A stretch of 64,000 bases of DNA from a virus (Duplodnaviria > Caudoviricetes). Positions 1 through 15,869 of the stretch are shown one piece after another. Positions within the stretch are counted from its first letter, which is position 1, and every line of letters starts with the position of its first letter. The DNA is taken from the IMG/VR virus record IMGVR_UViG_3300027971_000001, one strand, 5' to 3'. Made by a program: the position numbers and the translations under genes. The notes beneath the pieces were generated by a model. It searched no databases and had not been told where the DNA came from. It worked only from the letters and a program-made list of their open reading frames with translations.

Positions 1-376
1 TTAAAAGCTGAATCTTGGCTGTTTCTCTTATTGAATTGGTGCAACAGCATATTTTCTTACCATCTTTTTTTATTTTAAATAAAATATCCTTTATGCGTTC
101 ATCTTCTTTGAAATTGTTTATAATTTCTGTTGTATATTTTTGCTTTAATTGCCATATTTTTTTATGCAGTTCGATTGGTAGATTCTTTTTCTCAGAAAGA
201 ATATTCAGCTTTTTAGTTGTGCTAAGACCATCATATGTGGAAAGATGCTCTTCTTTTGATATTATATATTTTGTATCAATCTGCTCCAAAGCTTTATTAA
301 GTGACAAAAAATGCAGTTCTCTTGAGTCCACAAGAACACCGTCCAGATCAAATATAACCAATTTGATTTGGCTCAT
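1..376 (-). CDS. HAD-superfamily phosphatase, 3'-truncated by the window edge (not in ORF track)
   Basis: Manual translation from ATG at 376: MSQIKLVIFDLDGVLVDSRELH...ICCCTNSIRET. HAD motif I (DxDGV) and motif II (TN); frame open to the edge; overlaps the stop of the upstream kinase. Confidence 0.85.
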   Translation of the reverse strand, partial: MSQIKLVIFDLDGVLVDSRELHFLSLNKALEQIDTKYIISKEEHLSTYDGLSTTKKLNILSEKKNLPIELHKKIWQLKQKYTTEIINNFKEDERIKDILFKIKKDGKKICCCTNSIRETAKIQLL

Positions 377-1110
377 AAATTAGGTGTTGTCACTCCCTGG
401 TGTTGGGCCACTTCTGAAGCACAAATATTTGCAAATTCTATGGATTTTTCAATATCATTTGATTTGATATATTCCACAACTAGTCCTGATAAGAACGTAT
501 CTCCGCATCCAGAGGTGTCTTTTACTTCGATTCTTTTTGTAGGATATACTTTTCCATTATAAACACAACCATCTCCTCCTTTTGTGCGTATGATTTTCTT
601 TTCCAACTCTGGAGTTATGGTTTCTTTGCTTCTTTCATATTCGTAATTGTTTATTTTTATAAATTTTGCTTTATTTGCCCATGAACCAAGTTTCTTTTTT
701 GTGTCAATAAAAACATTTGGATGCCAAAAGCATATGCTTTCAATATCACTTTCTTTTAAAAATCCCTTGTTGTAATCAGAAATAACAATCAACTTATAAT
801 CATATCGAAGTAAAGATGTATCTACTCTGTCAATGTTGTGGTCAGTATCAACTCGCATGAACATGTGATTAGTTTGTTCGTGTACATATCTTGTTTTAGT
901 AACATATGGCCAATTTGTATTTGTGATAATATCACAATCACCACCCAAAGACACAATATTTCTCTGGACATTTTTTGCCATTCCTTCATTTTCTTTTTGA
1001 TGAAGAACTTTTAACGCCGGAACAGGAATATCGGGACACAAACGAGTACAATCACAATAAACAAAAATGTCCCTACAACTTTCACCGATGATGAGAATAT
1101 CTTTGTTCAT
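373..1110 (-). CDS. PfkB/ribokinase-family sugar kinase, HldE(RfaE) kinase-like
   Basis: IIGESCRDIF N-terminus, ISDYNKG, and C-terminal DTSGCGDTF PfkB signature. Confidence 0.85.
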   Translation of the reverse strand: MNKDILIIGESCRDIFVYCDCTRLCPDIPVPALKVLHQKENEGMAKNVQRNIVSLGGDCDIITNTNWPYVTKTRYVHEQTNHMFMRVDTDHNIDRVDTSLLRYDYKLIVISDYNKGFLKESDIESICFWHPNVFIDTKKKLGSWANKAKFIKINNYEYERSKETITPELEKKIIRTKGGDGCVYNGKVYPTKRIEVKDTSGCGDTFLSGLVVEYIKSNDIEKSIEFANICASEVAQHQGVTTPNL

Positions 1111-1115
1111 TCATT

Positions 1116-2300
1116 TCAAAAACAGCTTTTCTTTTCCACAATCATGCTGGGACGGTTAGAATTCATAGCATTTTTATATGCAACTATGGCTTCTTTACCG
1201 TTTGTGGGCACATAAATGGGGAAATCTACCATGTTTCTGAATCCTTCGGTGAAATCCTGTGAATGTGTAGGACCAGAATAAAAAGGTCCAGAATCTGCAA
1301 CCACAGATCGAAGAATCACTGGAACTTGATATTCTCCATGGGAAATTCTTTCAATATGATTCACATGATTCACAATGGCATCGGCAGCTACCATCATGAA
1401 ATCATGCCGCTCATAATAGATAACAGGCTTGAATCCTTCAAATGACATGCCAATTCCAAGACCAGTCATAAGATTTTCTGCTACTGGAGTTTCAATCTTT
1501 TGTGATTTATCGACATTTTTTAATGTTCCCATGGCATCACCATTGGTCACATTGTATCCAATAAACACTGAATTCATTTTTCCAATTTCTGTCATCATTT
1601 GATTGATGGCATCTTTGAACTTGATGTCTTCTGTTATATCAACTGAAGGAAGAACTTCTTTTGGAAGGGGTGGAAAATAATCATCATGAGTCTTTGTTTT
1701 AGTCTTACCCAAATTAATCATATCTTCTGTTCTGGCATGGGGCCATGTAATATTATAATAATATTTTCTAACACAAGGAAAGAAGGTTGGATCAAGAGCT
1801 TTGCCCCAACGCTCTGTTTTATCTGTGTTTACAGAACGATTGTTATCTTCAACTACAAATGTACAAGGCAAATCAAAACCATGAACATAACGGGCTGCTT
1901 CAAAAAGATGACCGGAATCCTCGGTTCCATCCCCTACAAAACACCATACCTTCTGTTTGGATCCTTTTCTTTTAAGAGCCAAAGCAATTCCTGCTGCAAT
2001 TGCAGCAGTTCCACCGATAATTGCTGAAGTAAAGAAGTTACGCTTACGATCATAAATGAACATGCTCCTTCCATTTTTAATACGATCTTCCAACACATCT
2101 GCAGGAACTCCATGTAAAAGTGCATGATAATGATTTCGGTGAGTAGCCAATACATAATCACCTTCTTTGATTTCTTTGAAAATATCCAGCAATTGTTCCT
2201 CGTTTCCTCCTGACAAATGAAACAGGAAAGGAAGCTGAGAGTCTCTGTAAAGATCCGCTATGCGGTTTTCAAAATTTAATAAATCATCTTTTGTAAGCAT
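1116..2300 (-). CDS. Fused TPP-dependent dehydrogenase E1 alpha/beta-like (transketolase-family) enzyme
   Basis: THRNHYHAL, TPP-binding GDG-x(26-27)-NN, then beta-like TPVAENLMTGLGIGMS and GPTHSQ. Confidence 0.85.
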   Translation of the reverse strand: MLTKDDLLNFENRIADLYRDSQLPFLFHLSGGNEEQLLDIFKEIKEGDYVLATHRNHYHALLHGVPADVLEDRIKNGRSMFIYDRKRNFFTSAIIGGTAAIAAGIALALKRKGSKQKVWCFVGDGTEDSGHLFEAARYVHGFDLPCTFVVEDNNRSVNTDKTERWGKALDPTFFPCVRKYYYNITWPHARTEDMINLGKTKTKTHDDYFPPLPKEVLPSVDITEDIKFKDAINQMMTEIGKMNSVFIGYNVTNGDAMGTLKNVDKSQKIETPVAENLMTGLGIGMSFEGFKPVIYYERHDFMMVAADAIVNHVNHIERISHGEYQVPVILRSVVADSGPFYSGPTHSQDFTEGFRNMVDFPIYVPTNGKEAIVAYKNAMNSNRPSMIVEKKSCF

Positions 2301-2313
2301 AAAAACTATTTTA

Positions 2314-3315
2314 TCAGGGACAAATCATAATTCTACCGGCTTTTCCATTTTTTACCAAATCTATGGCTTTGTTAACATCGTCCAGACTGAAATGGTGTGT
2401 TATCATTTTTTCAAAATTAATCTTTCTTTTATTATATAAATTAACATATCGAGGAAAATCTTCACTGGGATTCACATTCCCGCCCTGTGTGGAACGAATA
2501 ATTTGACCATTTCCTGCAAAGAAATTGGTTGGGTTCTTTATTTCCAAATTATTGTGCTTGCTAGGTTGGCTAACAATTATGCATCTTCCTCTGTTGGATA
2601 GTAAAGGCAAATAGTGGGAAACTACATTCATGTTTCCTGTTGTGTCAACAATACAATCTATTTTTTCATGAATTTGGTTTGATCCTTCAACAAATCGGGC
2701 TCCTAGTTCTTCTACCATGTTTTGTTTTTCATTCGAAATGTCCACCCCATAAATGTTTCCGGAACCTGCTAAATTTGATGCCATAATGATATTAAGACCC
2801 ACACCCCCGCAACCAATTACAAGAACAGTCTCCCCAAACTTTATGTTGGCATCATAATTAACAATTCCAAGTGCGGTACTCAGTCCACATCCCAGTAAAG
2901 CACAAAATTCATCTGGAATATTCTGAGGAACCGGTGTAAGCCGATTTTCTGACACGATGCTTTTTTCACTCAATGTGGTTATTTTTCCACTACTGATCTT
3001 TCTTCCATCGTAAATGTATTCCGGAAAAGGGGATTCAATACCTTCTCCTTTTTTCCAATGCAATATAACTTTGTCTCCGACTTTTACCCGAGTAACCCCT
3101 TCTCCAACACATTCCACAATTCCACACCCTTCATGCCCCAAAAGATGCGGAACAAATTTGGCATTTCCTTTTTGTCCGGCAATTTCCTGAAGTTGAGCAC
3201 CACAAACCCCACTAACAATTATTTTTACAGCGACCTGACCAAATTTGATTTCAGTAAGGGCAACATCCGCCACCACCAGCGGATGGTCAATTTTTTCCAA
3301 TATAGCCGCTTTCAT
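2314..3315 (-). CDS. Zn-dependent medium-chain alcohol dehydrogenase
   Basis: GVCGAQL, LLGHEGCG, LLGCGLST and GCGGVG Rossmann motif. Confidence 0.9.
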   Translation of the reverse strand: MKAAILEKIDHPLVVADVALTEIKFGQVAVKIIVSGVCGAQLQEIAGQKGNAKFVPHLLGHEGCGIVECVGEGVTRVKVGDKVILHWKKGEGIESPFPEYIYDGRKISSGKITTLSEKSIVSENRLTPVPQNIPDEFCALLGCGLSTALGIVNYDANIKFGETVLVIGCGGVGLNIIMASNLAGSGNIYGVDISNEKQNMVEELGARFVEGSNQIHEKIDCIVDTTGNMNVVSHYLPLLSNRGRCIIVSQPSKHNNLEIKNPTNFFAGNGQIIRSTQGGNVNPSEDFPRYVNLYNKRKINFEKMITHHFSLDDVNKAIDLVKNGKAGRIMICP

Positions 3316-4037
3316 TTCTTTTTGCCTATATAAATTAATGTTGCATAATGTGCTTTTTCTTCCCCGGCATATCTAATTCTTCCTTCCTGACGACTTAAAA
3401 CTTTTTCTGAGATAATTTCATATTTTGATAAAAAAGGTTTAATATCGTTATAATCAAACCGAATAGGATGCATCATTCCATTTGGATCATCTTTAGGTGT
3501 TCCTTCAAAATCTTCCTGATTCGTAAGATCATTACCCAAAATAAGAACTCCACCCTTTTTAAGATTATTATATATTGATTCCATGCATTTGGGCATGCTA
3601 TAAACATGATCCAATACATTAATACAAACAATCATATCCACTGGTTCTTTTAAAATCCATTCTTCAAGAGGCTTGGAACTGAGCTTTGCTTGCACTTCCA
3701 TGGCAAAATTAGAAACAGGTCGTCCCATGTTTACATATTCTTTCAACAAAGGATCACTTAAAAAATATTTGGTTGGTTTTGTTTGTAATGCTTGAATCAC
3801 ATATTGTATGTTTTTTGCAATTGGACCACAACCAACTTCAGCAATTGAATCAATTTTTTCATTTGCAATTGCAGAAAAATGATCAAATTTCATTTTCCAC
3901 CACATGTTCCAATCATCGTCAATATTATTGGCTTCCCATAATTTAAGTTCCATTTTCTGGGATTCATTTGCCCAAGCTTCTTTGGGTATTTCCTGATATC
4001 TTTCAGTTATATTCATTTTGCATATAACATTCCCCAT
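3312..4037 (-). CDS. Class I SAM-dependent methyltransferase
   Basis: AEVGCGP motif I; CINVLDHV; LKKGGVL. Confidence 0.75.
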   Translation of the reverse strand: MGNVICKMNITERYQEIPKEAWANESQKMELKLWEANNIDDDWNMWWKMKFDHFSAIANEKIDSIAEVGCGPIAKNIQYVIQALQTKPTKYFLSDPLLKEYVNMGRPVSNFAMEVQAKLSSKPLEEWILKEPVDMIVCINVLDHVYSMPKCMESIYNNLKKGGVLILGNDLTNQEDFEGTPKDDPNGMMHPIRFDYNDIKPFLSKYEIISEKVLSRQEGRIRYAGEEKAHYATLIYIGKKK

Positions 4038-4672
4038 CGCTTTTTACGCTCTGGTTCAATGTCCTCATCTTTTATAAGATCATTCCAGGTTTTATATTCT
4101 AAAGCCGGATTGAATTCTTGTATTGTTTCGTTTGTTCCTTCCCAATGACTGTCATTGGAAAACATGTTATAGCCAAGTTTTCTTAATATTTCAACACATT
4201 TTAATGTATCTTGGAAAAATTCCTCACACCATTCCAAAAGAACTGTTCCGCATTTTTGTGATAATCCACTCAACGCAATAGATTCGGCACCTTCAATATC
4301 CAATTTTATAATATCCGGAACACCATAAACACTTATCATTTTGTCCAAAGTTGTGGATCTTACTTTTATTTCCCGTTTTGTTTGCTGAAAATAATGATTA
4401 TGCCGTATTTTTTCAATCCAATTTGGGTTTATTGAATTGATGCCTGGATTGCAATCACATATGAAAAGGGATACATCTTGTTTGTAAACATCTGAAACAA
4501 CACCATGCACATACTCAACATTAGGCAGAGGATTTCTATCAAACATTTCTTTGTAAGTAGGATGACCATCCACACCTATGATTTTTGCATTTGGATATAT
4601 TCCTAGTATGCACCGGGAAAAATTGCCCACATTATATCCAATATCAAAAACAAGAGGAGGTTTATCGCTCAT
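4013..4672 (-). CDS. FkbM-family methyltransferase
   Basis: VFDIGYNVG, TTLD, IIKLDIEGAE. Confidence 0.85.
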   Translation of the reverse strand: MSDKPPLVFDIGYNVGNFSRCILGIYPNAKIIGVDGHPTYKEMFDRNPLPNVEYVHGVVSDVYKQDVSLFICDCNPGINSINPNWIEKIRHNHYFQQTKREIKVRSTTLDKMISVYGVPDIIKLDIEGAESIALSGLSQKCGTVLLEWCEEFFQDTLKCVEILRKLGYNMFSNDSHWEGTNETIQEFNPALEYKTWNDLIKDEDIEPERKKRWGMLYAK

Positions 4673-5354
4673 AAATATGCCAATTTAATTTGTTTGTTGG
4701 ATATTCCCATGGTTCTATAGGTTTTGTATATCTATGCATATACAAAGGTTTATCCAGTGTTTTAAAAACCAAATCAACCATGAACATGACACAAGATTCT
4801 ATAACATGAACTTCTTTTGCATTCTCAATTATTTTACAATAATCAAATATATTGTTTGTATATTCAGGTTTGACCCTGAATATTTTTAAATTTTTGTCAG
4901 CTATTTTGGTTGTATCAACTATTTGATTTCTTGCAATATCATCATGAATAAAAACATATTCATTTGGTTCAAACCCGAAACTTGAATATAATTTATTTTC
5001 CCGTTCATGATCTCTTTCCACATGAAAGCTTTCCCATTTCTTGTTAAAATCCACTCCTGCTTGAGCATAAAAGCTTTTTTCAACAGTGTCCGCTCCTCCC
5101 ATTCCCAATTTATAAAAATTCTTTATTCCATGCAGATTTACAAAATATTGTGCTCCGCTTTCTTCAATCGGGAAAACTTTAAGATTGGGTAGATCCCGAT
5201 ACATGAATTCGATATTATAATAATATTTCAACTTGCTATACACATACAATTTGGGATGACGCTTGTATAGTTCTCTGACAAGACCATTGCATGTGACTTG
5301 ATCTCCTAATCCCAAATGAGTTAAAACATGACCTTCCTCGGACTTTATGATCAT
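4662..5354 (-). CDS. Glycosyltransferase-like protein (HLGLGD type)
   Basis: N-terminal HLGLGDQV resembling GT9-like starts; C-terminal IIENAKEVHVIES; cluster context. Confidence 0.5.
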   Translation of the reverse strand: MIIKSEEGHVLTHLGLGDQVTCNGLVRELYKRHPKLYVYSKLKYYYNIEFMYRDLPNLKVFPIEESGAQYFVNLHGIKNFYKLGMGGADTVEKSFYAQAGVDFNKKWESFHVERDHERENKLYSSFGFEPNEYVFIHDDIARNQIVDTTKIADKNLKIFRVKPEYTNNIFDYCKIIENAKEVHVIESCVMFMVDLVFKTLDKPLYMHRYTKPIEPWEYPTNKLNWHIYER

Positions 5355-6199
5355 AGAGTTTGTACGTATTTTATAAGACTCTTGGCCCTGTTTTTGAAAG
5401 TATGTTTCTTTCGAACAAATTCTTCTCCCTTAATACCAACATCCTTGGCAACCAATGGATTGGCTTTGAGATAATTTATCTTTTCAATTGCTTCATCCAA
5501 GCTTTTGTATGAGAAAAAGGTTTCTCCTTCTTTGAATCCCAGATCATTATATTGATCGTCATAACTGGTAAGAAGACATGTTCCACATCCGGCGGTTTCA
5601 AAGCTTCGATAATTTATATCATTAAAAATGTTTTTATTAAACAAAACCATATATGAATTGATGGCCCGAATCATATGGATTCCTCGCACATCAATATCCA
5701 TTTTGAATTCAGGGAAACGATTCTGGATTGCATCAAACAATGGCTTTCGGTTGCAATAGTTTCCACAAAATCCCAAAAATGTGTTTTTTTCTATTTCTTT
5801 TATAGGTGTTATGAAATCTGAATCATAACAGTTTGGAAACCATACACTGTTTTCGTCAATAAAATATCTTGTTGCTTCCAGTATTTTTCTATATTTTCCT
5901 TTATTAAAAATGTTTAGATAATATTGTTTGCCCTGACAATGACTGTCGATTGCCCAAAGAAGCTTGATAGGTTTGTTATATTCTGAAAGATCAGGAACCC
6001 ATCCCACATCATAATTTTCTAAATTTATAATCACATCATATGAATTATAGTCTGGTTTCTTTTCAAAATTATCATGACCCAAACCCCAAACATCACATTC
6101 TTCCCCATGAAACCAAAGTGCACGTTGAAGACTGTTACATTCCCGTAAATGCTTGCTAACGATATGTCTTCCGTTTTCCTGTATGATCAAGAATTTCAT
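5351..6199 (-). CDS. Glycosyltransferase, CgeB/YkvP-like GT-B fold
   Basis: GFCGN..NR, INYRSFETAGCGTCLLT, and C-terminal HTFKNRAK typical of this family. Confidence 0.8.
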   Translation of the reverse strand: MKFLIIQENGRHIVSKHLRECNSLQRALWFHGEECDVWGLGHDNFEKKPDYNSYDVIINLENYDVGWVPDLSEYNKPIKLLWAIDSHCQGKQYYLNIFNKGKYRKILEATRYFIDENSVWFPNCYDSDFITPIKEIEKNTFLGFCGNYCNRKPLFDAIQNRFPEFKMDIDVRGIHMIRAINSYMVLFNKNIFNDINYRSFETAGCGTCLLTSYDDQYNDLGFKEGETFFSYKSLDEAIEKINYLKANPLVAKDVGIKGEEFVRKKHTFKNRAKSLIKYVQTL

Positions 6200-6939
6200 A
6201 TGTAATACTTCCTCCGGTGGTGAAAAAACAATTGTTTATAGGGTGAATTTTGTTTGATTTTATGATTGCCCCATTGAGATGGATCCCGTTGAATGGTTAT
6301 TTTATATCTTATTGAAAGCAAGGACAGAATGGATTGGTCATGACGATGATCTTGAAAGTCTTTATTAAAATTTTCAGTTATATTTGGAGCATCCGAGATT
6401 ATATTATAATTCTGACAAACATCAAGATAACAATCAAAGAACTTTTTGCTAAAATCAGTTTTACGAAAAACAATATAAGATGCATTTACCTGATTGCCAT
6501 ACAGATATTCATCTGTCTTTAATCCCATGATATTAAAACAATCAGATTTTGTCCATTGATTATTTTTCCAAACATTACCATTTGGTTCACCATCTGTGTT
6601 TTCAAATAAAATAATTCCTTTTTCATCTTTTTTGCACAAATCATACAAAGGAGACAGGTCACCAATCACTTCATTTCCTGAATCAACATACATAAAAACA
6701 TCATCATCAGATGCTTTATCCAAGAACTTTTTTATAAAATAACCTTTCCAAACCCAATAACCAAATCCCCTCTTTTCATTGAAATGCCGAATATTCTTTT
6801 TATAAAATTCAGATTCAATATCTGGTTCTTTCAAAATATGAATCTGATTCACATTTGCATGCTCTTCAGCACTGGCTTTTAAAGCATCTAAAGTTGGATA
6901 ATATTTCCAGTTTCCGAAACTAAACAACGCTTTTTTCAT
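6196..6939 (-). CDS. Glycosyltransferase-like protein
   Basis: GFGYWVWK, FMYVDSG (DxD-like), HRHDQSILSLL; GT-A-like pattern. Confidence 0.6.
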   Translation of the reverse strand: MKKALFSFGNWKYYPTLDALKASAEEHANVNQIHILKEPDIESEFYKKNIRHFNEKRGFGYWVWKGYFIKKFLDKASDDDVFMYVDSGNEVIGDLSPLYDLCKKDEKGIILFENTDGEPNGNVWKNNQWTKSDCFNIMGLKTDEYLYGNQVNASYIVFRKTDFSKKFFDCYLDVCQNYNIISDAPNITENFNKDFQDHRHDQSILSLLSIRYKITIQRDPSQWGNHKIKQNSPYKQLFFHHRRKYYI

Positions 6940-7676
6940 TGAATCTTACTTAAATCAGCTTTGATTCCCAGTATCTGTTCCCATTTTTTGGCTTCTTCGA
7001 TACGAGCATCTCTCAGCTTGGGCCAAATAAGATCGGAATGTTCTTTGTTTTCACCTTCATGTTTACGCATATCGTCGGCCACCTTGTCATATTTGCTGGT
7101 TCCAAACACCCAATGATTATGTGTGATGGTGATATCTGAACGATAAACCTTTCGCCCAAATGCCGTATACATGTTGTCCAGCCATTGATCAATCCAATTA
7201 CGACTAAATTCTTTTCGCATGAAATAACCAGTTACTTCCATGTAACGACGATGAATAAACAACCATGCAGCAAATTGATCATTGCGATGGCCATCATATC
7301 CGCAAACAAGCTTGAACTTGTCCGGGCATTTTTCAGCAGAGAACTCTTCCAGGATTTTCTCATCCCAACCATCTGTGCTGAATACCATGTCATCTCCAAG
7401 CATGCTGATAATTTCTTCGGTACTGTTTTCTGCTAATGTGTTCCAAAGATAACCAAGGCTGAATTTTCCTTCAGGATTGGGAGGAATCACAACGATTTTC
7501 AAATTGCTTATTGCTTTTGCCATTTTTTGACAACGTTCCAATGTAGGATCATCTTTGTCTATTCCCATGTAAAGTGTGTAGTTATCTGGATTCTTGCATC
7601 GAGACAATGCACTCATCATGAAACTGATTTTATTGTTTAATCGTTCCCGTGTTGGAAGTAATAATGCTATTTTCAT
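6936..7676 (-). CDS. GT2-family glycosyltransferase
   Basis: LLLPTRER, IDKDD, MLGDDM, conserved His (HNHW). Confidence 0.7.
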   Translation of the reverse strand: MKIALLLPTRERLNNKISFMMSALSRCKNPDNYTLYMGIDKDDPTLERCQKMAKAISNLKIVVIPPNPEGKFSLGYLWNTLAENSTEEIISMLGDDMVFSTDGWDEKILEEFSAEKCPDKFKLVCGYDGHRNDQFAAWLFIHRRYMEVTGYFMRKEFSRNWIDQWLDNMYTAFGRKVYRSDITITHNHWVFGTSKYDKVADDMRKHEGENKEHSDLIWPKLRDARIEEAKKWEQILGIKADLSKIQ

Positions 7677-8473
7677 GCTTTACCCTCCTTTTTGATTTTC
7701 TTCATAATCTGTAGAACCTTTTCTTTTGAAGAATCTGGTACGCAATTTTGCCATGCCGGATTATAACCATGCTTTTTATAAAATAAAGAGCATCCTTTCT
7801 GAATATTTTCTCGCCAATCATTACGAGGACGAATGGAACTGCTGTGTTCAGAACACATTAGTTCATCAATATAATCCATGCTATTGGCCAGATCAGGCCA
7901 GTTCCAATAAGGAGTTGTATATCCTGCAAGGGCTATGCGATAACTGTGTTCCACATGCTCAAAAGCATTTAGAAAATCCTCATCAAACAATCCAATCTTT
8001 TCAAGAACCTCCCTTGTATAATAACAAAAACTACCCACACAGCCCTGAACTATGGCAATTCTTGTATTTTCTGGATATTCCACAATAAACCGGGGACAGG
8101 CAGGACCGCCAGAAACTCCATTTTTGTTGGCAGGACCATGATAAGCAAACATAAAATGCTGAATTCCTGTAATATCTCTTGCCTGTATATAAGCATCAAA
8201 AACTTCAGGTTTTTTGATCAACATGTCATCTTCAACTATAAAAATGTGTTCACACCCCTTTTCCAAAAGCTTTTTAAATAATATATTTTTACATTTTCCT
8301 ACCCCTAAATTTGTTTTATTTTGTATAAAAGTGTGGTTTTGGCGTTCCGGAACCTGAAATTGCTTTCCATCATTGACAGTAACAGTATAAATCTCTTCAG
8401 GAATGCTGTTTAAGCATTTATTGTAAAAATCTGGTCGATTGCAAGTAACTATGCCAATTCCAATATTTTTCAC
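7673..8473 (-). CDS. GT2-family glycosyltransferase
   Basis: IVTCNRPD, VNDG, NLGVGKCKN, IVEDD, GLFDEDF, EHVE. Confidence 0.85.
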   Translation of the reverse strand: MKNIGIGIVTCNRPDFYNKCLNSIPEEIYTVTVNDGKQFQVPERQNHTFIQNKTNLGVGKCKNILFKKLLEKGCEHIFIVEDDMLIKKPEVFDAYIQARDITGIQHFMFAYHGPANKNGVSGGPACPRFIVEYPENTRIAIVQGCVGSFCYYTREVLEKIGLFDEDFLNAFEHVEHSYRIALAGYTTPYWNWPDLANSMDYIDELMCSEHSSSIRPRNDWRENIQKGCSLFYKKHGYNPAWQNCVPDSSKEKVLQIMKKIKKEGKA

Positions 8474-8506
8474 TTGTATTGATTTACTTTAAAATAAATA
8501 ATATCA

Positions 8507-9148
8507 ATGGCCGATCCTAATGTAATTAATATCAAAACATTGCCTCGTGTAGAAGAAGTTGTTAATGGCAATCTTTTGATAGTTGAAACTGAACAAGGCA
8601 CAAACACAATTGATTTTTCTAATTTTGTTGTTGGTCCAAATAATGTTAGTTTTTACACACAAATAACAAATCTTTCTGCACAAAACATTTCGCTCAGTGC
8701 AAGCACAACAACTCAAATTGCTAATCTTTCCACCACAACAAACCAACAAATCACAGCTTTAAACACCCGGATAGATTCGCTTTCAGCAACTGTTTCAAAT
8801 GCCGTATCATCTGTTTTCTATGCAGCAAGTGCAATATTCATAGGTTATGGGTCAACTGCCAGCAATTTGATCACAATAACAAAACCAACCAATTTTAACC
8901 TGCAGGCAAATGATTTTGTGCTAACTCTTGCAACAAGTGCGCAACCTGCTCCTTTGGGTGGTTCGCCTAATTTTCCAACCGGAGCATCTGGATTTGATCT
9001 TATCAGTGCTTTCCCGTTACCGTTTGTTCGGGACCAGGATGTGGCGAATGTGGGAAATACTTGTCAGTTCACAATTCGTTTGACACATACACCCAAAATA
9101 AGTGCAGTGGGTGTGCGATATCTTATTAGTCGTCCTTACGGAATCTGA
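8507..9148 (+). CDS. Putative virion structural protein (fibre/baseplate accessory)
   Basis: S/T/N-rich heptad segment followed by a beta-rich end; TAAATA 6 nt upstream. Confidence 0.5.
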   Translation: MADPNVINIKTLPRVEEVVNGNLLIVETEQGTNTIDFSNFVVGPNNVSFYTQITNLSAQNISLSASTTTQIANLSTTTNQQITALNTRIDSLSATVSNAVSSVFYAASAIFIGYGSTASNLITITKPTNFNLQANDFVLTLATSAQPAPLGGSPNFPTGASGFDLISAFPLPFVRDQDVANVGNTCQFTIRLTHTPKISAVGVRYLISRPYGI

Positions 9149-12100
9149 TTATTTTGCTCTTGCGTATTTAAAAGGGGATTCTGCGAAAGCTGCAAATATA
9201 ATTGTACCATTATTACTTGCAGTTGTGTTGCTTCTTAACTTAAATCCATTTGAAACATAGTCCATGATTGGAGGGGAGTAGGGACCTCCCTCTGTATTTG
9301 AATAGTTTGGGTAAATCTCAACATCATAACCATTGTAAATAGACCTTGCCGTGTCCTTAATAATCCAAGGTTCGGCAGAGTCCGTTCTTTTTATCATTAA
9401 AAATCTCGGTCTAAACCCACAATAAACAAACGGACCATCTGTCGAGGCATTTCCTGCGTAGCTTCCGAACTTTGAATAGCCGTCTATTTCAGCGAAGCAG
9501 TAGGCAATCATATTCACACTTGCTACCGATAATCCACCGCCAGTAACACCAAAGACTGATGGTGTGGGAAGGCTAGCTCCCCACACGGTGGAAAATGTTA
9601 CAACTGCATCAGTAGTGTTTAGTCGTAAGAATTTTGATGTAGTATCACAAACTGAAGAATGATAAACACCCCAATTATTGACATTTGTATCCCTGTTTTT
9701 TGCAATTATCATTTTTGGTACAACGCCAAGACCGTGACCAACAGTTTCTTGATTTGTTCCAGATGCGTTGACAAAACTCACAATACTAAACCCAGCCTGC
9801 GGATTTGCCCTGACGGTGCTGGTGATAGAGCCATTAGTGTTAGTGGAGCTAGTTGAACTTGCTTGCCAAGCCCAAGCAACATAAGTTGAACCACTATTGT
9901 TGGCTGTTATACTGGTATTCAGGGTAAATCCATCCTGATTAAAATTAGTCAAAAATGAATCAGGCGAGCCTGCTCTTGTGTTATTAGAACACAACACTTC
10001 TCCCGTTCCCCTTACAGTATCCGACAAAACATGACTTATATTCTGTGATCTGCTTTTGACCCAAACCAGATCAGGAGCAAATGCCAATCCAGAAGGTGAA
10101 ACAAACGTTGACCCTGTTCCATTATATGTTACGGCATCAAATGCAGATTTGGATTTTTTAATTGTCGGAGTTGTTAAGTTTTGAGTGCAGAGTGCCTTGA
10201 AGCCAGTTGGTGCGGTGTAGGCAAATGGGCGTTGGCCGAAGTTTGCAACTGCCTGATCTCCAGAATAAGTGTTGCAAGCAAAGTAGTAGGATAGCCCAGA
10301 AAGTATAGAATATGTTTCTGTTGTTCCAGATGCTGGGTTCCCGCTGTTAGCCCAAGACCCATTCCTACCAAACCACACCTTGTTGTTATCTAGATCAAGA
10401 GCAACCATATAAATATCGTTAACAACTGGGGAGCTGCCTCCAAAGTTTGTTATAGTCGAATAGATATTGTTATTTTCTTTATATGTCCCGCCACCAACAT
10501 AAGCGGAGTACCCATCAGCATATTGACTGATGTATGGATTACCGCTGGTCACAATTGAGGTGTTTGCAGAACTGATAATTCCAATTCTGAATGGGTTTGA
10601 CGCGGCGGTATTTGTAAACTCGCAGTACCACTTTCCAGTAGACATTGCAATTGAGGATACGCCTAAAGCATTCTTACCGTTAGCCCCACCAGTATGGGTT
10701 AACGTAAGGTTCCCATCCGTTATAATACCTCCAATATTTCCAAATAATGGGTTAAGTGTCGCGTAGTTCCCTCTCACCTCACCACCCAATCCTGTATCAT
10801 TTCCATAATCTGTTGGACTATCCAAAAGACTGTCATTGCCTGCTCCTGATGTGACGGAGAGATTGGTAGCTACCCAATTATTATAACCTCCAGTAGGAAG
10901 AGATCTGTCTTCTCCCAGCGCCAAAGTAGGATTTTGAACGGATGTCACCGTATACATATAAGGTCCTGCTGATGATCCTTGTTCAAGTTGTGCACCCCAA
11001 ATGTAACTTCCTTTTACGCCGTCTCCGCTAACAGCATTAAACTGATAGTTTACAGTGAATGTTGTGCCCGCTCCTGTTCCAAGATTCACAGTACATGTGA
11101 CACGATACCATCCATCCCCTACTGAAGTTATTGTTCCGGTTGCTCCATTTATTCCATCAGTTATATTTCCAGTAGCTAAATCAAAACCTATATAAGCATA
11201 AGAGGTATCTTTCTTTTGTATATAAAGTACTCCTGTAGTAAAATCCAAAGCTTTCAAATAAACAGAACTGGTCCATACTTGATTATCTGTTGCACTTCCT
11301 GTCGTGTTAAATTGACCCAGAATCTGCCCGTTATTAATGACCATCTTATCTGCTGTGTTTGTTCCATTTGGAGCAGTGGTTGCATTAGTAACACATGTGC
11401 TTTGATACTTTGTCCAAAATACGTTTGAAAAATCCTCTGAATACGTAAAATAATTTGCTGTAGTAGATTGATTTTGAAAAGGCAAATAAAAACCATTTGT
11501 TCCATATGTTCCAACATATTTTTTGGGCATCCAAGATCCTGTAATTGAATCGGTATAACCAAAGCTGGAAGAATCCAACGCTTGACCATCAATGAAGTTA
11601 ACTTCAGACATATAACCGTCAAAGTAATTACCATTATACGTCCCAAGTCTTCCAATAGCCATTTCAACAGATGCCTGATTAAACCTTCCATCGACGTTCT
11701 GAGGAGTTGGGTAAGTACTAGCTCCGTCGAATGCGGTTAGTCTAACTCCATTAACGTATAGCTTCACTCTCTCGGATGCCGTGGCTTGAGTTGTGTCGTA
11801 TTGGGCAACCACATGATACCAAGCAGAAGTATCTCGGTACAGACTTGACGATAGAACATACCAATCCCACCCACTTGTTGCGTAGTCCCCAAAGAATAAT
11901 GTATCAGAACCAAACCCAAGATATATACCATTAGTCCCAGTAGGGGCTTGAGCATTTCCAAGAAAATAATAAGACGCCGACCCAATTGTTGTTCTCTTCA
12001 CCCAAGCGCTAAATGTCCAAGTCTTGCGATTACCCGCAGCCGAAGGTATTCTGCTTAAATACGCTGAGTCCAAAGGATTAAACCGCAGACTTCTGGATAT

Positions 12101-12169
12101 TTTATAGCTGCTTGAACTACTGCTATAAGGTATTACAGAAGCGGATCCGAATGTGCTTTTGGCTGGCAT
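9149..12169 (-). CDS. Large tail-fibre/receptor-binding protein with LamG- and SPRY-like lectin domains
   Basis: SRSLRFN..YLSR, WTFSAWVKR, AWYHVV (LamG); GKWYCEF, MVALDLDNNKVWFG (SPRY); PDLVWVKSR tail. Confidence 0.75.
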   Translation of the reverse strand: MPAKSTFGSASVIPYSSSSSSYKISRSLRFNPLDSAYLSRIPSAAGNRKTWTFSAWVKRTTIGSASYYFLGNAQAPTGTNGIYLGFGSDTLFFGDYATSGWDWYVLSSSLYRDTSAWYHVVAQYDTTQATASERVKLYVNGVRLTAFDGASTYPTPQNVDGRFNQASVEMAIGRLGTYNGNYFDGYMSEVNFIDGQALDSSSFGYTDSITGSWMPKKYVGTYGTNGFYLPFQNQSTTANYFTYSEDFSNVFWTKYQSTCVTNATTAPNGTNTADKMVINNGQILGQFNTTGSATDNQVWTSSVYLKALDFTTGVLYIQKKDTSYAYIGFDLATGNITDGINGATGTITSVGDGWYRVTCTVNLGTGAGTTFTVNYQFNAVSGDGVKGSYIWGAQLEQGSSAGPYMYTVTSVQNPTLALGEDRSLPTGGYNNWVATNLSVTSGAGNDSLLDSPTDYGNDTGLGGEVRGNYATLNPLFGNIGGIITDGNLTLTHTGGANGKNALGVSSIAMSTGKWYCEFTNTAASNPFRIGIISSANTSIVTSGNPYISQYADGYSAYVGGGTYKENNNIYSTITNFGGSSPVVNDIYMVALDLDNNKVWFGRNGSWANSGNPASGTTETYSILSGLSYYFACNTYSGDQAVANFGQRPFAYTAPTGFKALCTQNLTTPTIKKSKSAFDAVTYNGTGSTFVSPSGLAFAPDLVWVKSRSQNISHVLSDTVRGTGEVLCSNNTRAGSPDSFLTNFNQDGFTLNTSITANNSGSTYVAWAWQASSTSSTNTNGSITSTVRANPQAGFSIVSFVNASGTNQETVGHGLGVVPKMIIAKNRDTNVNNWGVYHSSVCDTTSKFLRLNTTDAVVTFSTVWGASLPTPSVFGVTGGGLSVASVNMIAYCFAEIDGYSKFGSYAGNASTDGPFVYCGFRPRFLMIKRTDSAEPWIIKDTARSIYNGYDVEIYPNYSNTEGGPYSPPIMDYVSNGFKLRSNTTASNNGTIIFAAFAESPFKYARAK

Positions 12170-15409: not shown

Positions 15410-15730
15410 TTAATTTTCCCAGCTTGTTCCAGCAAAAGGATTGCCAAAACCACTTGTTATCTTATTTCCTACTTGTGCAGGTCTTGGACCATCTTGATTG
15501 ATCTGTTGTTGAACAGGTTTAGGTTCTTCCTTTTTCTGTTCATTCAAAAGAACTTGATTGCTTGTGGAACTTTTATTGTCATGATTTTCATAAATGATTT
15601 CACCCCCTTCATTACCTGAAACTTTGAAGATTCCCAGTTCTAAACCAAGTGAGAAGAAATCTTTTATCTTTTTAAGTGATATCTTTTTATCTTTTACTTT
15701 GTTATATATTTCATTAATTTTATATATCAT
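15410..15730 (-). CDS. Hypothetical protein
   Basis: ORF abutting the downstream gene. Confidence 0.6.
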   Translation of the reverse strand: MIYKINEIYNKVKDKKISLKKIKDFFSLGLELGIFKVSGNEGGEIIYENHDNKSSTSNQVLLNEQKKEEPKPVQQQINQDGPRPAQVGNKITSGFGNPFAGTSWEN

Positions 15731-15869
15731 ATAGTATATCTTATATCCTTATTATATTAATCAATATATTATCTATATTACTTTATATTAGTATTATTAA
15801 TATTATATATTATATAATGTCCTTGGATTTAACCAAGTTTATTTAATTTTTCGACAAAAAAAGTCAAGT

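Follow-up and report, generated by a model that had tools for sequence, protein, structure and literature searches.

We analysed a 64-kb window, the whole 64,000-nucleotide stretch of virus record IMGVR_UViG_3300027971_000001, which comes from a freshwater, T4-like phage. Positions 2-8473 of the minus strand form a single tightly packed operon, in which a small thiamine diphosphate (ThDP) enzyme, here called mini-E1, lies between a zinc-dependent alcohol dehydrogenase (ADH) and a sugar kinase. On balance, we favour the reading that mini-E1 is a minimal, E2-independent and probably homodimeric E1-type carboligase dedicated to sugar biosynthesis. Most likely, it makes a sugar of an unusual kind, branched or extended by two carbons, for the glycan of the phage itself, and does not supply central metabolism. 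This reading draws on profile scores that favour E1 over transketolase (TK) and 1-deoxyxylulose-5-phosphate (DXP) synthase (DXS), on intact motifs, on the lack of E2 and E3, on a separate clade, on a recurrent ADH-ThDP enzyme-kinase trio, and on heptose-type partner genes. The open reading frames (ORFs) that we called coincided exactly with those of the initial annotation of this DNA. The four genes at the core of the argument are as follows.

1116-2300, minus strand: mini-E1 ThDP enzyme, a fused truncated E1-alpha and E1-beta Pyr protein of 394 aa (Pfam, NCBIfam, motifs, AF2, Foldseek, tree)
2314-3315, minus strand: zinc-dependent MDR alcohol dehydrogenase of 333 aa (Pfam ADH_N and ADH_zinc_N)
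373-1110, minus strand: PfkB-family sugar kinase of 245 aa, nearest family HldE domain I heptose-7-phosphate kinase (TIGR02198)
2-376, minus strand: HAD (beta-PGM-family) phosphatase, the first 125 residues of a HAD/RmlA-like nucleotidyltransferase fusion

The mini-E1 enzyme and its family

The initial annotation had described a compact alpha/beta fusion without the usual C-terminal beta domain, and the Pfam matches bore this out. E1_dh matched residues 7-162, covering only positions 6-170 of the 300 in the profile, and Transket_pyr matched residues 227-392. The chain stops two residues past this pyrimidine-binding (Pyr) domain, and Pfam found no Transketolase_C, i.e. the C-terminal beta domain that docks onto E2 is missing. 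The C-terminal half of the E1-alpha part is also absent, a point that goes beyond the annotation. The resulting layout is a pyrophosphate-binding (PP) domain at about residues 1-190, a linker, and the Pyr domain at about residues 227-392.

Among NCBIfam profiles, the best matches were pyruvate dehydrogenase (PDH) E1 alpha (1e-24) and E1 beta (5e-17), both far below their cut-offs, compared with 3e-8 for TK and 1e-7 for DXS (cut-offs 466-575 bits). The ThDP motif (GDG at 123-125 and EDNN at 151-154) is present, as are Glu275 and THSQ (345-348) in the Pyr domain; GDG, EDNN and Glu275 are invariant or almost so in the mini-E1 family. The E1-alpha signatures H28, GNE (32-34) and R55/H59 are invariant across relatives. 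In Foldseek searches with the whole chain of the AlphaFold2 (AF2) model (pLDDT 91.4, pTM 0.93), TK was matched with a TMq of 0.65-0.70 and DXS with 0.35. Such a TK/E1-like arrangement of PP and Pyr domains would place the active sites across a dimer interface. Identity to Staphylococcus E1-beta was ~24%, and PHROGs assigned the enzyme to phrog_34187, labelled 'unknown function'.

Relatives of the ThDP enzyme were abundant and mostly viral: more than 1100 were returned by a word-indexed search, and 4577 representative matches by an exhaustive one. They include hundreds of full-length fused forms of ~390-400 aa and many split halves of ~200 and ~175 aa. Classical fused E1 alpha-beta proteins (650-676 aa) are just ~30% identical to the phage enzyme. 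In deposited phage records, full-length homologues were present only in the cyanophages P-TIM68 (64%) and S-SM2 (61%), both annotated as 'transketolase central region-containing protein', and the split form in one uncultured 735-kb phage. Public annotations of the relatives vary among transketolase-like, PDH E1-alpha and DXP synthase. A scan of genome contigs gave six loci only, mostly phage-like or fragments of metagenome-assembled genomes (MAGs).

A maximum-likelihood tree of PP domains separated 19 mini-family sequences from 6 classical E1-alpha sequences with 100/100 support. These six were a Staphylococcus bkd-type E1-alpha, four fused E1 proteins, and the E1-alpha of a bacterial sugar cluster (L042, described below); this last protein, of classical size, grouped with classical E1 and not with the mini family. 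Within the mini family, the fused phage clade was nested among split forms. The initial annotation had called for a phylogeny against PDH E1 and AviB; in the present tree, the mini family stood apart from these six classical E1-alpha sequences. A literature search found no paper characterising these proteins. As judged from sequence, the mini-E1 family is a large, uncharacterised, mostly viral and separate minimal lineage.

Several relatives had unusual architectures. The mini-E1 alpha genes of two metagenomic relatives (P0179 and P0218) are interrupted by inteins (Hint, LAGLIDADG). Fusions of radical SAM/SPASM with mini-E1 also occur (P0184 and P0290), and in an Omnitrophota MAG (L044, 8546-16436) a split mini-E1 pair has radical SAM/SPASM genes on both sides. 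The ParB-methylase and terminase large subunit genes next to this pair suggest that L044 is a prophage or phage contig. For the radical SAM/SPASM partners and fusions, the sole match to a sugar enzyme was a weak one to BlsE. The single fusion of an APH kinase with a PP domain (P0131), whose kinase half had no match in the PDB, supports the kinase link described below.

Gene neighbourhood and missing partners

For a neighbour census, ORFs were called in 110 loci with the fused form from IMG/VR and JGI/ENA metagenomes, including a 205-kb contig that carries the identical ThDP gene. The enzymes were clustered at 90% identity into 47 groups, and neighbours were labelled against references annotated in this analysis. 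In 36 of 40 groups, an ADH gene preceded the ThDP enzyme by no more than two genes, and in 30 of 41 a PfkB kinase followed it within three. Among the 30 well-flanked groups, a GT9-like protein that we label fam7 was present in 12, an HldD-like epimerase (TIGR02197, 4e-55) in 11, a cupin and a GT47-like protein in 10 each, and a HAD phosphatase and a short-chain dehydrogenase/reductase (SDR) ketoreductase in 9 each; a 4,6-dehydratase-like SDR was found in only 6. The two well-flanked loci without ADH had a radical SAM enzyme, which may replace it there.

The ADH is closest to class I/III ADHs, with the structural-zinc lobe deleted. Its catalytic zinc ligands (C38/H61/C143), GxGGxG motif and NAD-type Asp192 are all invariant, and by these conserved residues it is catalytically intact. 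This ADH subfamily was found solely in phages that also have the ThDP enzyme. Four weak reasons suggest that the ADH may create the acceptor carbonyl rather than reduce the branch: the NAD-type Asp, the position of the ADH gene ahead of the ThDP gene, the frequent presence of separate ketoreductases of the SDR or aldo-keto reductase (AKR) type, and the radical SAM enzyme in the two ADH-less loci.

The PfkB kinase matched TIGR02198 with 97 bits (8e-28; cut-off 345). HldE-like kinases occur in ~13 cyanophages. In P-TIM68 and S-SM2, which also have ADH and the ThDP enzyme, they share 52-63% identity with the kinase of the window; for the HldE-like kinases of the other cyanophages, identity does not exceed 40%. 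This indicates that the ThDP-linked kinase is a co-inherited, specialised paralogue. The generic cyanophage module (e.g. in P-SSM2) consists of a nucleotidyltransferase, a kinase, a HAD protein, a cupin and an HldD-like epimerase, without ADH or ThDP enzyme. The HAD/nucleotidyltransferase protein of the window continues past the window start and is 458 aa long in identical relatives (L007:11925-13301, L004:11767-13143); its HAD domain is of the beta-PGM type and its nucleotidyltransferase domain RmlA-like, and neither is of the GmhB/HldE-II kind. The presence of a specialised, conserved kinase, together with HAD and nucleotidyltransferase genes in many loci, suggests that the carbon-carbon (C-C) step precedes nucleotide activation.

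We then considered which partners were missing. No E2, E3, 4,6-dehydratase, GmhA, cupin, HldD-like or RmlC gene was detected in the 64-kb window by tblastn with reference proteins, the E2 and E3 queries being Staphylococcus proteins; this agrees with the initial annotation, which had noted no E2/E3 nearby. The complete P-TIM68 and S-SM2 genomes, both of which carry the ThDP enzyme, gave no match to the E2 domain PF00198, and the control was found in 10 of 14 genomes. In the closest relatives, no 4,6-dehydratase was present within ~10 kb of the ThDP enzyme. GmhA was present in a few phage loci with the ThDP enzyme and in the bacterial cluster, and was mostly absent otherwise; no SIS/GmhA (SIS_2) domain was found in the complete P-TIM68 and S-SM2 genomes.

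A cyanophage gene that widely bears the annotation 'phosphoheptose isomerase' (T4-GC 306, phrog_1238) was also inspected. It matched profiles of HAD-type capsule-biosynthesis phosphatases and PNK-phosphatase, and not SIS/GmhA, so this annotation is probably wrong. The cupin beside this HAD-like gene, annotated as 'cysteine dioxygenase', might be the real isomerase. The HAD-like gene has the following positions.

P-TIM68 (L001) 15474-15812; P-SSM2 (L048) 7713-8057; L020:13474-13812: HAD-like gene annotated as 'phosphoheptose isomerase'

The split form was found in a further setting, a 588-kb contig of an uncultured bacterium (C3, ~505-525 kb; L047 and L042) with a long polysaccharide cluster. 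Its gene order starts with GmhA, a Gmd-like 4,6-dehydratase, a sugar C-methyltransferase, two GT1 and a second sugar C-methyltransferase, continues with an SDR, a classical-size E1 alpha/beta pair, RmlC with further SDRs, and an AKR, and ends with the split mini-E1, an HddA-like GHMP kinase (161 bits against HddA, cut-off 600), two GT2 and GmhB. An AKR and a GHMP kinase, from superfamilies unrelated to those of the phage partners, again flank mini-E1 here. Its content leaves little doubt that the locus serves heptose-type sugars that are heavily modified, C-branched or deoxy. As GmhA is present in this cluster, mini-E1 would supplement heptose chemistry rather than stand in for it. With its classical and mini-E1 pairs together, the cluster would seem to make heptose or deoxy sugars that bear several C-branches. 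In viral contigs, split mini-E1 genes were located among RmlA-, RmlC- and 4,6-dehydratase-like genes and an aminotransferase.

The remaining genes of the operon are listed below.

3312-4037, minus strand: SAM-dependent methyltransferase of 241 aa (Pfam Methyltransf_23/31)
4013-4672, minus strand: FkbM-family methyltransferase of 219 aa (PF05050, TIGR01444)
4662-5354, minus strand: fam7, a compact GT-B protein with a GT9 heptosyltransferase-like fold, 230 aa
5351-6199, minus strand: glycosyltransferase-like protein of 282 aa (Glyco_trans_1_2)
6196-6939, minus strand: fam6 (also a label of this analysis), no assigned family, 247 aa, kept in related clusters
6936-7676, minus strand: weakly GT2-like protein of 246 aa (PF00535, E 0.0026, below cut-off)
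7673-8473, minus strand: phage glycosyltransferase of 266 aa, first gene of the minus-strand operon (phrog_2456, phrog_1579)

Profile matches at 2-4672 confirmed the zinc-dependent ADH, sugar kinase, HAD phosphatase and two methyltransferases that the initial annotation had placed around the ThDP enzyme. Its five glycosyltransferase-like genes (4662-8473) fared less evenly: three were supported by profile and one by fold, and fam6 was left without support, as it had no Pfam, NCBIfam or PHROG match and nothing indicating a glycosyltransferase. The one supported by fold is fam7, which had no Pfam or PHROG match. Its AF2 model (pLDDT 84.5) resembles the ADP-heptose heptosyltransferases WaaF, WaaC and TibC; the best Foldseek matches were WaaF (1psw), a GT9 protein (3tov), TibC and WaaC at TMq ~0.5, and an atlas lead also pointed to GT9.

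The 241-aa methyltransferase belongs to part of the lineage only, being missing in four loci (L005-L008) whose ThDP enzyme is 99-100% identical. Between the window and L007, the ThDP enzyme (99.7%), kinase (97.6%) and HAD protein (99.2%) are nearly identical, whereas ADH identity is 83.5% (L007 8965-9987). Together with the missing methyltransferase, this suggests that a recombination boundary lies at the ADH/ThDP junction. A megablast search of the operon against phage records gave no match.

Further observations concern the flanks of the operon. The sequence ahead of the operon start showed no recognisable T4-type late promoter. At 8474-8510 of the window, TAAATA lies ~8 nt ahead of the ATG of a plus-strand gene (8507-9148), which is consistent with a leaderless late promoter, and no such box was present at the divergent glycan operon. 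A 1006-aa protein with Laminin_G_3 and DUF7483 (9149-12169, minus strand), probably a fibre or baseplate protein, adjoins the glycan operon. On the other side, the 149-aa gene after the HAD-nucleotidyltransferase fusion gave one lead, a weak GDPD match. Just beyond the window start, L007 (16130-17128) and relatives have an IMPDH/GMP-reductase-like gene that follows the sugar module at a distance of a few genes; a DUF7796 protein and two proteins of no assigned function are conserved beside it.

Proposed route and alternatives

What the donor and acceptor are, in which order ADH and ThDP enzyme act, whether the product is branched or extended, and what the glycan's target is (virion, host envelope or other) are matters of inference. 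In the route that we favour, the most likely task of the NAD-dependent ADH would be to turn a hydroxyl group into a carbonyl on a sugar, or sugar phosphate, of the heptose class; reduction of the new ketone is the less likely alternative. The ThDP enzyme would decarboxylate a 2-oxo acid, most likely pyruvate, and add the two-carbon unit to that carbonyl. If a secondary hydroxyl had been oxidised, the ketone acceptor would yield a C-acetyl or 1-hydroxyethyl branch; if a terminal CH2OH had been oxidised, the aldehyde acceptor would yield a two-carbon-extended, omega-deoxy higher sugar. The HldE-like kinase, HAD phosphatase and fused nucleotidyltransferase would then turn the product into a nucleoside diphosphate (NDP)-sugar. 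Phage transferases, one of them GT9-like in fold, would install this sugar on the glycan, and the two methyltransferases would methylate it.

A bolder version of this reading can be put forward tentatively. Mini-E1 would represent a virus-dominated, unrecognised class of carboligases that, with an obligate dehydrogenase, assembles a new higher-carbon or branched heptose-like sugar, which dedicated enzymes (kinase, phosphatase and nucleotidyltransferase) would then activate. Such a path would enter nucleotide-sugar metabolism by a new route, and T4-like phages of cyanobacteria and freshwater hosts may use it to make a glycan that no host pathway provides.

Several points weigh against the carboligase reading. 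The donor and acceptor are assigned by analogy, and the oxidative role of ADH is weakly supported. The kinase, HAD and nucleotidyltransferase matches are all well below curated family cut-offs, and HAD and nucleotidyltransferase genes are present in only about a third of well-flanked loci. The 'heptose-class' label reflects nearest-family resemblance in several independent genes. The classical side of the tree, moreover, was limited to one bkd-type, one sugar-cluster and four fused E1 sequences.

The initial annotation had proposed branched-sugar synthesis of the kind catalysed by AviB1/B2 or YerE. Its broader part holds up, as a dedicated sugar C-C enzyme in a nucleotide-sugar and glycosyltransferase operon is the best reading; the NDP-4-keto acceptor that it assumed is disfavoured by the lack of a 4,6-dehydratase and by the kinase link. 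In that specific form, which we consider unlikely, the enzyme would act on an NDP-4-keto-(3,)6-deoxyhexose, form an acetyl branch from pyruvate, and leave the ADH to reduce it to a 1-hydroxyethyl (yersiniose-type) group. Two-carbon (C2) branching by E1-type enzymes followed by ketoreduction is known (PMC12247030, PMC4753412), split relatives occur among RmlA-, RmlC- and 4,6-dehydratase-like genes, and such a dehydratase is near 6 of 30 fused loci. However, the window has none, nor do the ~10 kb around the enzyme in its closest relatives, the partners are heptose-type rather than deoxyhexose-type, and SDR/AKR ketoreductases are often present besides ADH. A near-obligate specialised kinase would also be unexplained if the substrate were already nucleotide-activated; the conserved kinase link points instead to a substrate of the heptose class, sugar or sugar phosphate, that is not yet nucleotide-activated.

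Quite unlikely, in our view, is a decarboxylase acting with an aldehyde reductase. Here a 3-deoxy-2-ulosonic acid phosphate of the Kdo-8-P, DAHP or KDPG type would be converted to a 2-deoxy-aldose phosphate, the ADH would reduce or interconvert the aldehyde, and kinase, phosphatase and nucleotidyltransferase would follow. E1 enzymes accept 2-oxo acids with CH2 or CH at C3, and decarboxylases are repeatedly found paired with an ADH. The partners here, class I/III-like ADHs and AKRs, are of types that commonly reduce aldehydes, and the complete P-TIM68 and S-SM2 genomes lack GmhA yet have heptose-type kinases. On the other hand, reduction of the aldehyde would destroy the anomeric centre needed by an HldE/HddA-type kinase and a glycosyltransferase, and GmhA co-occurs with the enzyme in the bacterial cluster and some phage loci. 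To our knowledge, no E1-type enzyme has an ulosonic acid phosphate as substrate.

Very improbable is an auxiliary role in central metabolism, with mini-E1 as a small TK or DXP synthase that raises sedoheptulose-7-P or DXP, or as an E1 that uses host E2/E3: the annotations of relatives and the TK-like domain arrangement are in its favour, but E1 profiles outscore TK and DXS with all scores far below cut-off, the E2-docking domain and alpha C-terminal half are lacking, the clade is apart from classical E1, the gene sits inside glycan operons in which ADH and kinase are obligate partners, and cyanophages with the generic heptose module lack the ThDP enzyme. The initial annotation had likewise argued against a role in central metabolism, and the lack of E2/E3 and of the docking domain and the separate clade speak against a housekeeping PDH or acetoin dehydrogenase.

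Two other ideas were rejected. A supply role as a transketolase was ruled out on profile scores and context. Replacement of GmhA by the ADH and ThDP enzyme in making heptose-7-P was also dismissed, since no plausible two-enzyme chemistry leads to an aldoheptose and GmhA coexists with them in the bacterial cluster and some phage loci.

Significance and comparison with known systems

The mini-E1 family is abundant, is present in two cultured cyanophages (P-TIM68 and S-SM2), and has no assigned function. As its members are annotated transketolase-like, PDH E1-alpha or DXP synthase, virome surveys may mis-assign them to pentose-phosphate or pyruvate metabolism. Virome work does tally viral 'transketolase' as a pentose-phosphate gene, although the example listed there is from a different virus (PMC4053976). 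If the carboligase reading is right, no E1-type carboligase smaller than mini-E1 is known, and none had been known from a virus. Glycans of the phage or of the infected cell would then be expected to carry an undescribed sugar, and enzymologists would gain a compact starting point for forming C-C bonds. In a 2025 review, viruses are named explicitly as a source in which C-C-forming ThDP enzymes are still unexplored (PMC12247030). The cultured hosts of P-TIM68 and S-SM2 make the question directly testable.

The nearest known chemistry is that of AviB1/AviB2 (avilamycin), Pau11/Pau12 (paulomycin), AlmDI/DII (aldgamycin) and KbDH-alpha/beta (kibdelomycin). AlmD, KbDH, AviB and Pau11/12 are E2-independent E1-type enzymes that decarboxylate pyruvate and add a C2 unit to a keto sugar (PMC12247030, PMC4753412), and the new ketone is often reduced next, e.g. 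by the AKR Pau7 (PMC12247030, PMC4753412, PMC4425429). Like these alphaKADH2 branching enzymes, the phage enzyme is an E1-type ThDP enzyme in a sugar setting without E2/E3. Of the kinship with AviB1/B2 suggested in the initial annotation, the chemistry may hold, but the family is distinct and minimal: Pau11 and Pau12 are separate full-length subunits of 325 and 345 aa (PMC4425429), whereas the phage enzyme is a single chain of 394 aa. The alphaKADH2 enzymes have been described in antibiotic clusters of actinomycetes, with 3- or 4-keto deoxyhexoses as substrates; the phage enzyme has two core domains only, belongs to a mostly viral family, and is linked to a kinase and heptose-type enzymes. An alphaKADH2-type cluster would be expected to include an NDP-hexose 4,6-dehydratase to supply the keto-deoxysugar acceptor, and the window and the ~10 kb around the enzyme in its closest relatives lack one.

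In miharamycin and amipurimycin biosynthesis, a dehydrogenase is proposed to make a keto group to which a ThDP enzyme of TK/E1 fold then adds a C2 unit (PMC12247030), a logic similar to that proposed here. However, the enzyme there is a split transketolase from another ThDP subfamily, its donor is a hydroxyacetyl unit from a ketose, and the pathway is unproven in vitro. YerE (yersiniose A) likewise performs ThDP-dependent C2 branching of a sugar bound for a surface glycan, its substrate being CDP-3,6-dideoxy-4-keto-glucose. YerE, which the initial annotation had cited as a precedent, belongs to the decarboxylase superfamily (PMC12247030), a ThDP family unrelated to the E1-type PP-then-Pyr order of the phage enzyme.

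The heterotetrameric E1 enzymes (PDH, branched-chain 2-oxo acid dehydrogenase (BCKDH) and acetoin Ao:DCPIP OR) have ThDP and Pyr motifs in common with the phage enzyme and are its best sequence matches. Missing from the phage enzyme are the C-terminal half of alpha, the C-terminal domain of beta and an E2/E3 partner, and its clade is separate. TK and DXP synthase are single chains of 600-680 aa with a C-terminal domain that the 394-aa phage enzyme does not have, and the likeness to TK is confined to the PP-Pyr arrangement.

The routes to NDP-heptose (GmhA/HldE/GmhB/HldD; HddA/HddC) and to the lincosamide octose (LmbR/N/P/K/O) have the same logic of kinase, phosphatase and nucleotidyltransferase acting on a higher-carbon sugar phosphate. 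In the Lmb octose route, a C-C-forming enzyme, a transaldolase, builds the sugar first. In contrast to both routes, the phage loci mostly lack GmhA, their C-C enzyme is of the ThDP type with an ADH as partner, and the matches are below family cut-offs. Taken as a whole, the phage module fits the logic of AviB, KbDH and miharamycin with three differences: a separate minimal lineage, a probably heptose-class acceptor, and a C-C step that would come before activation.

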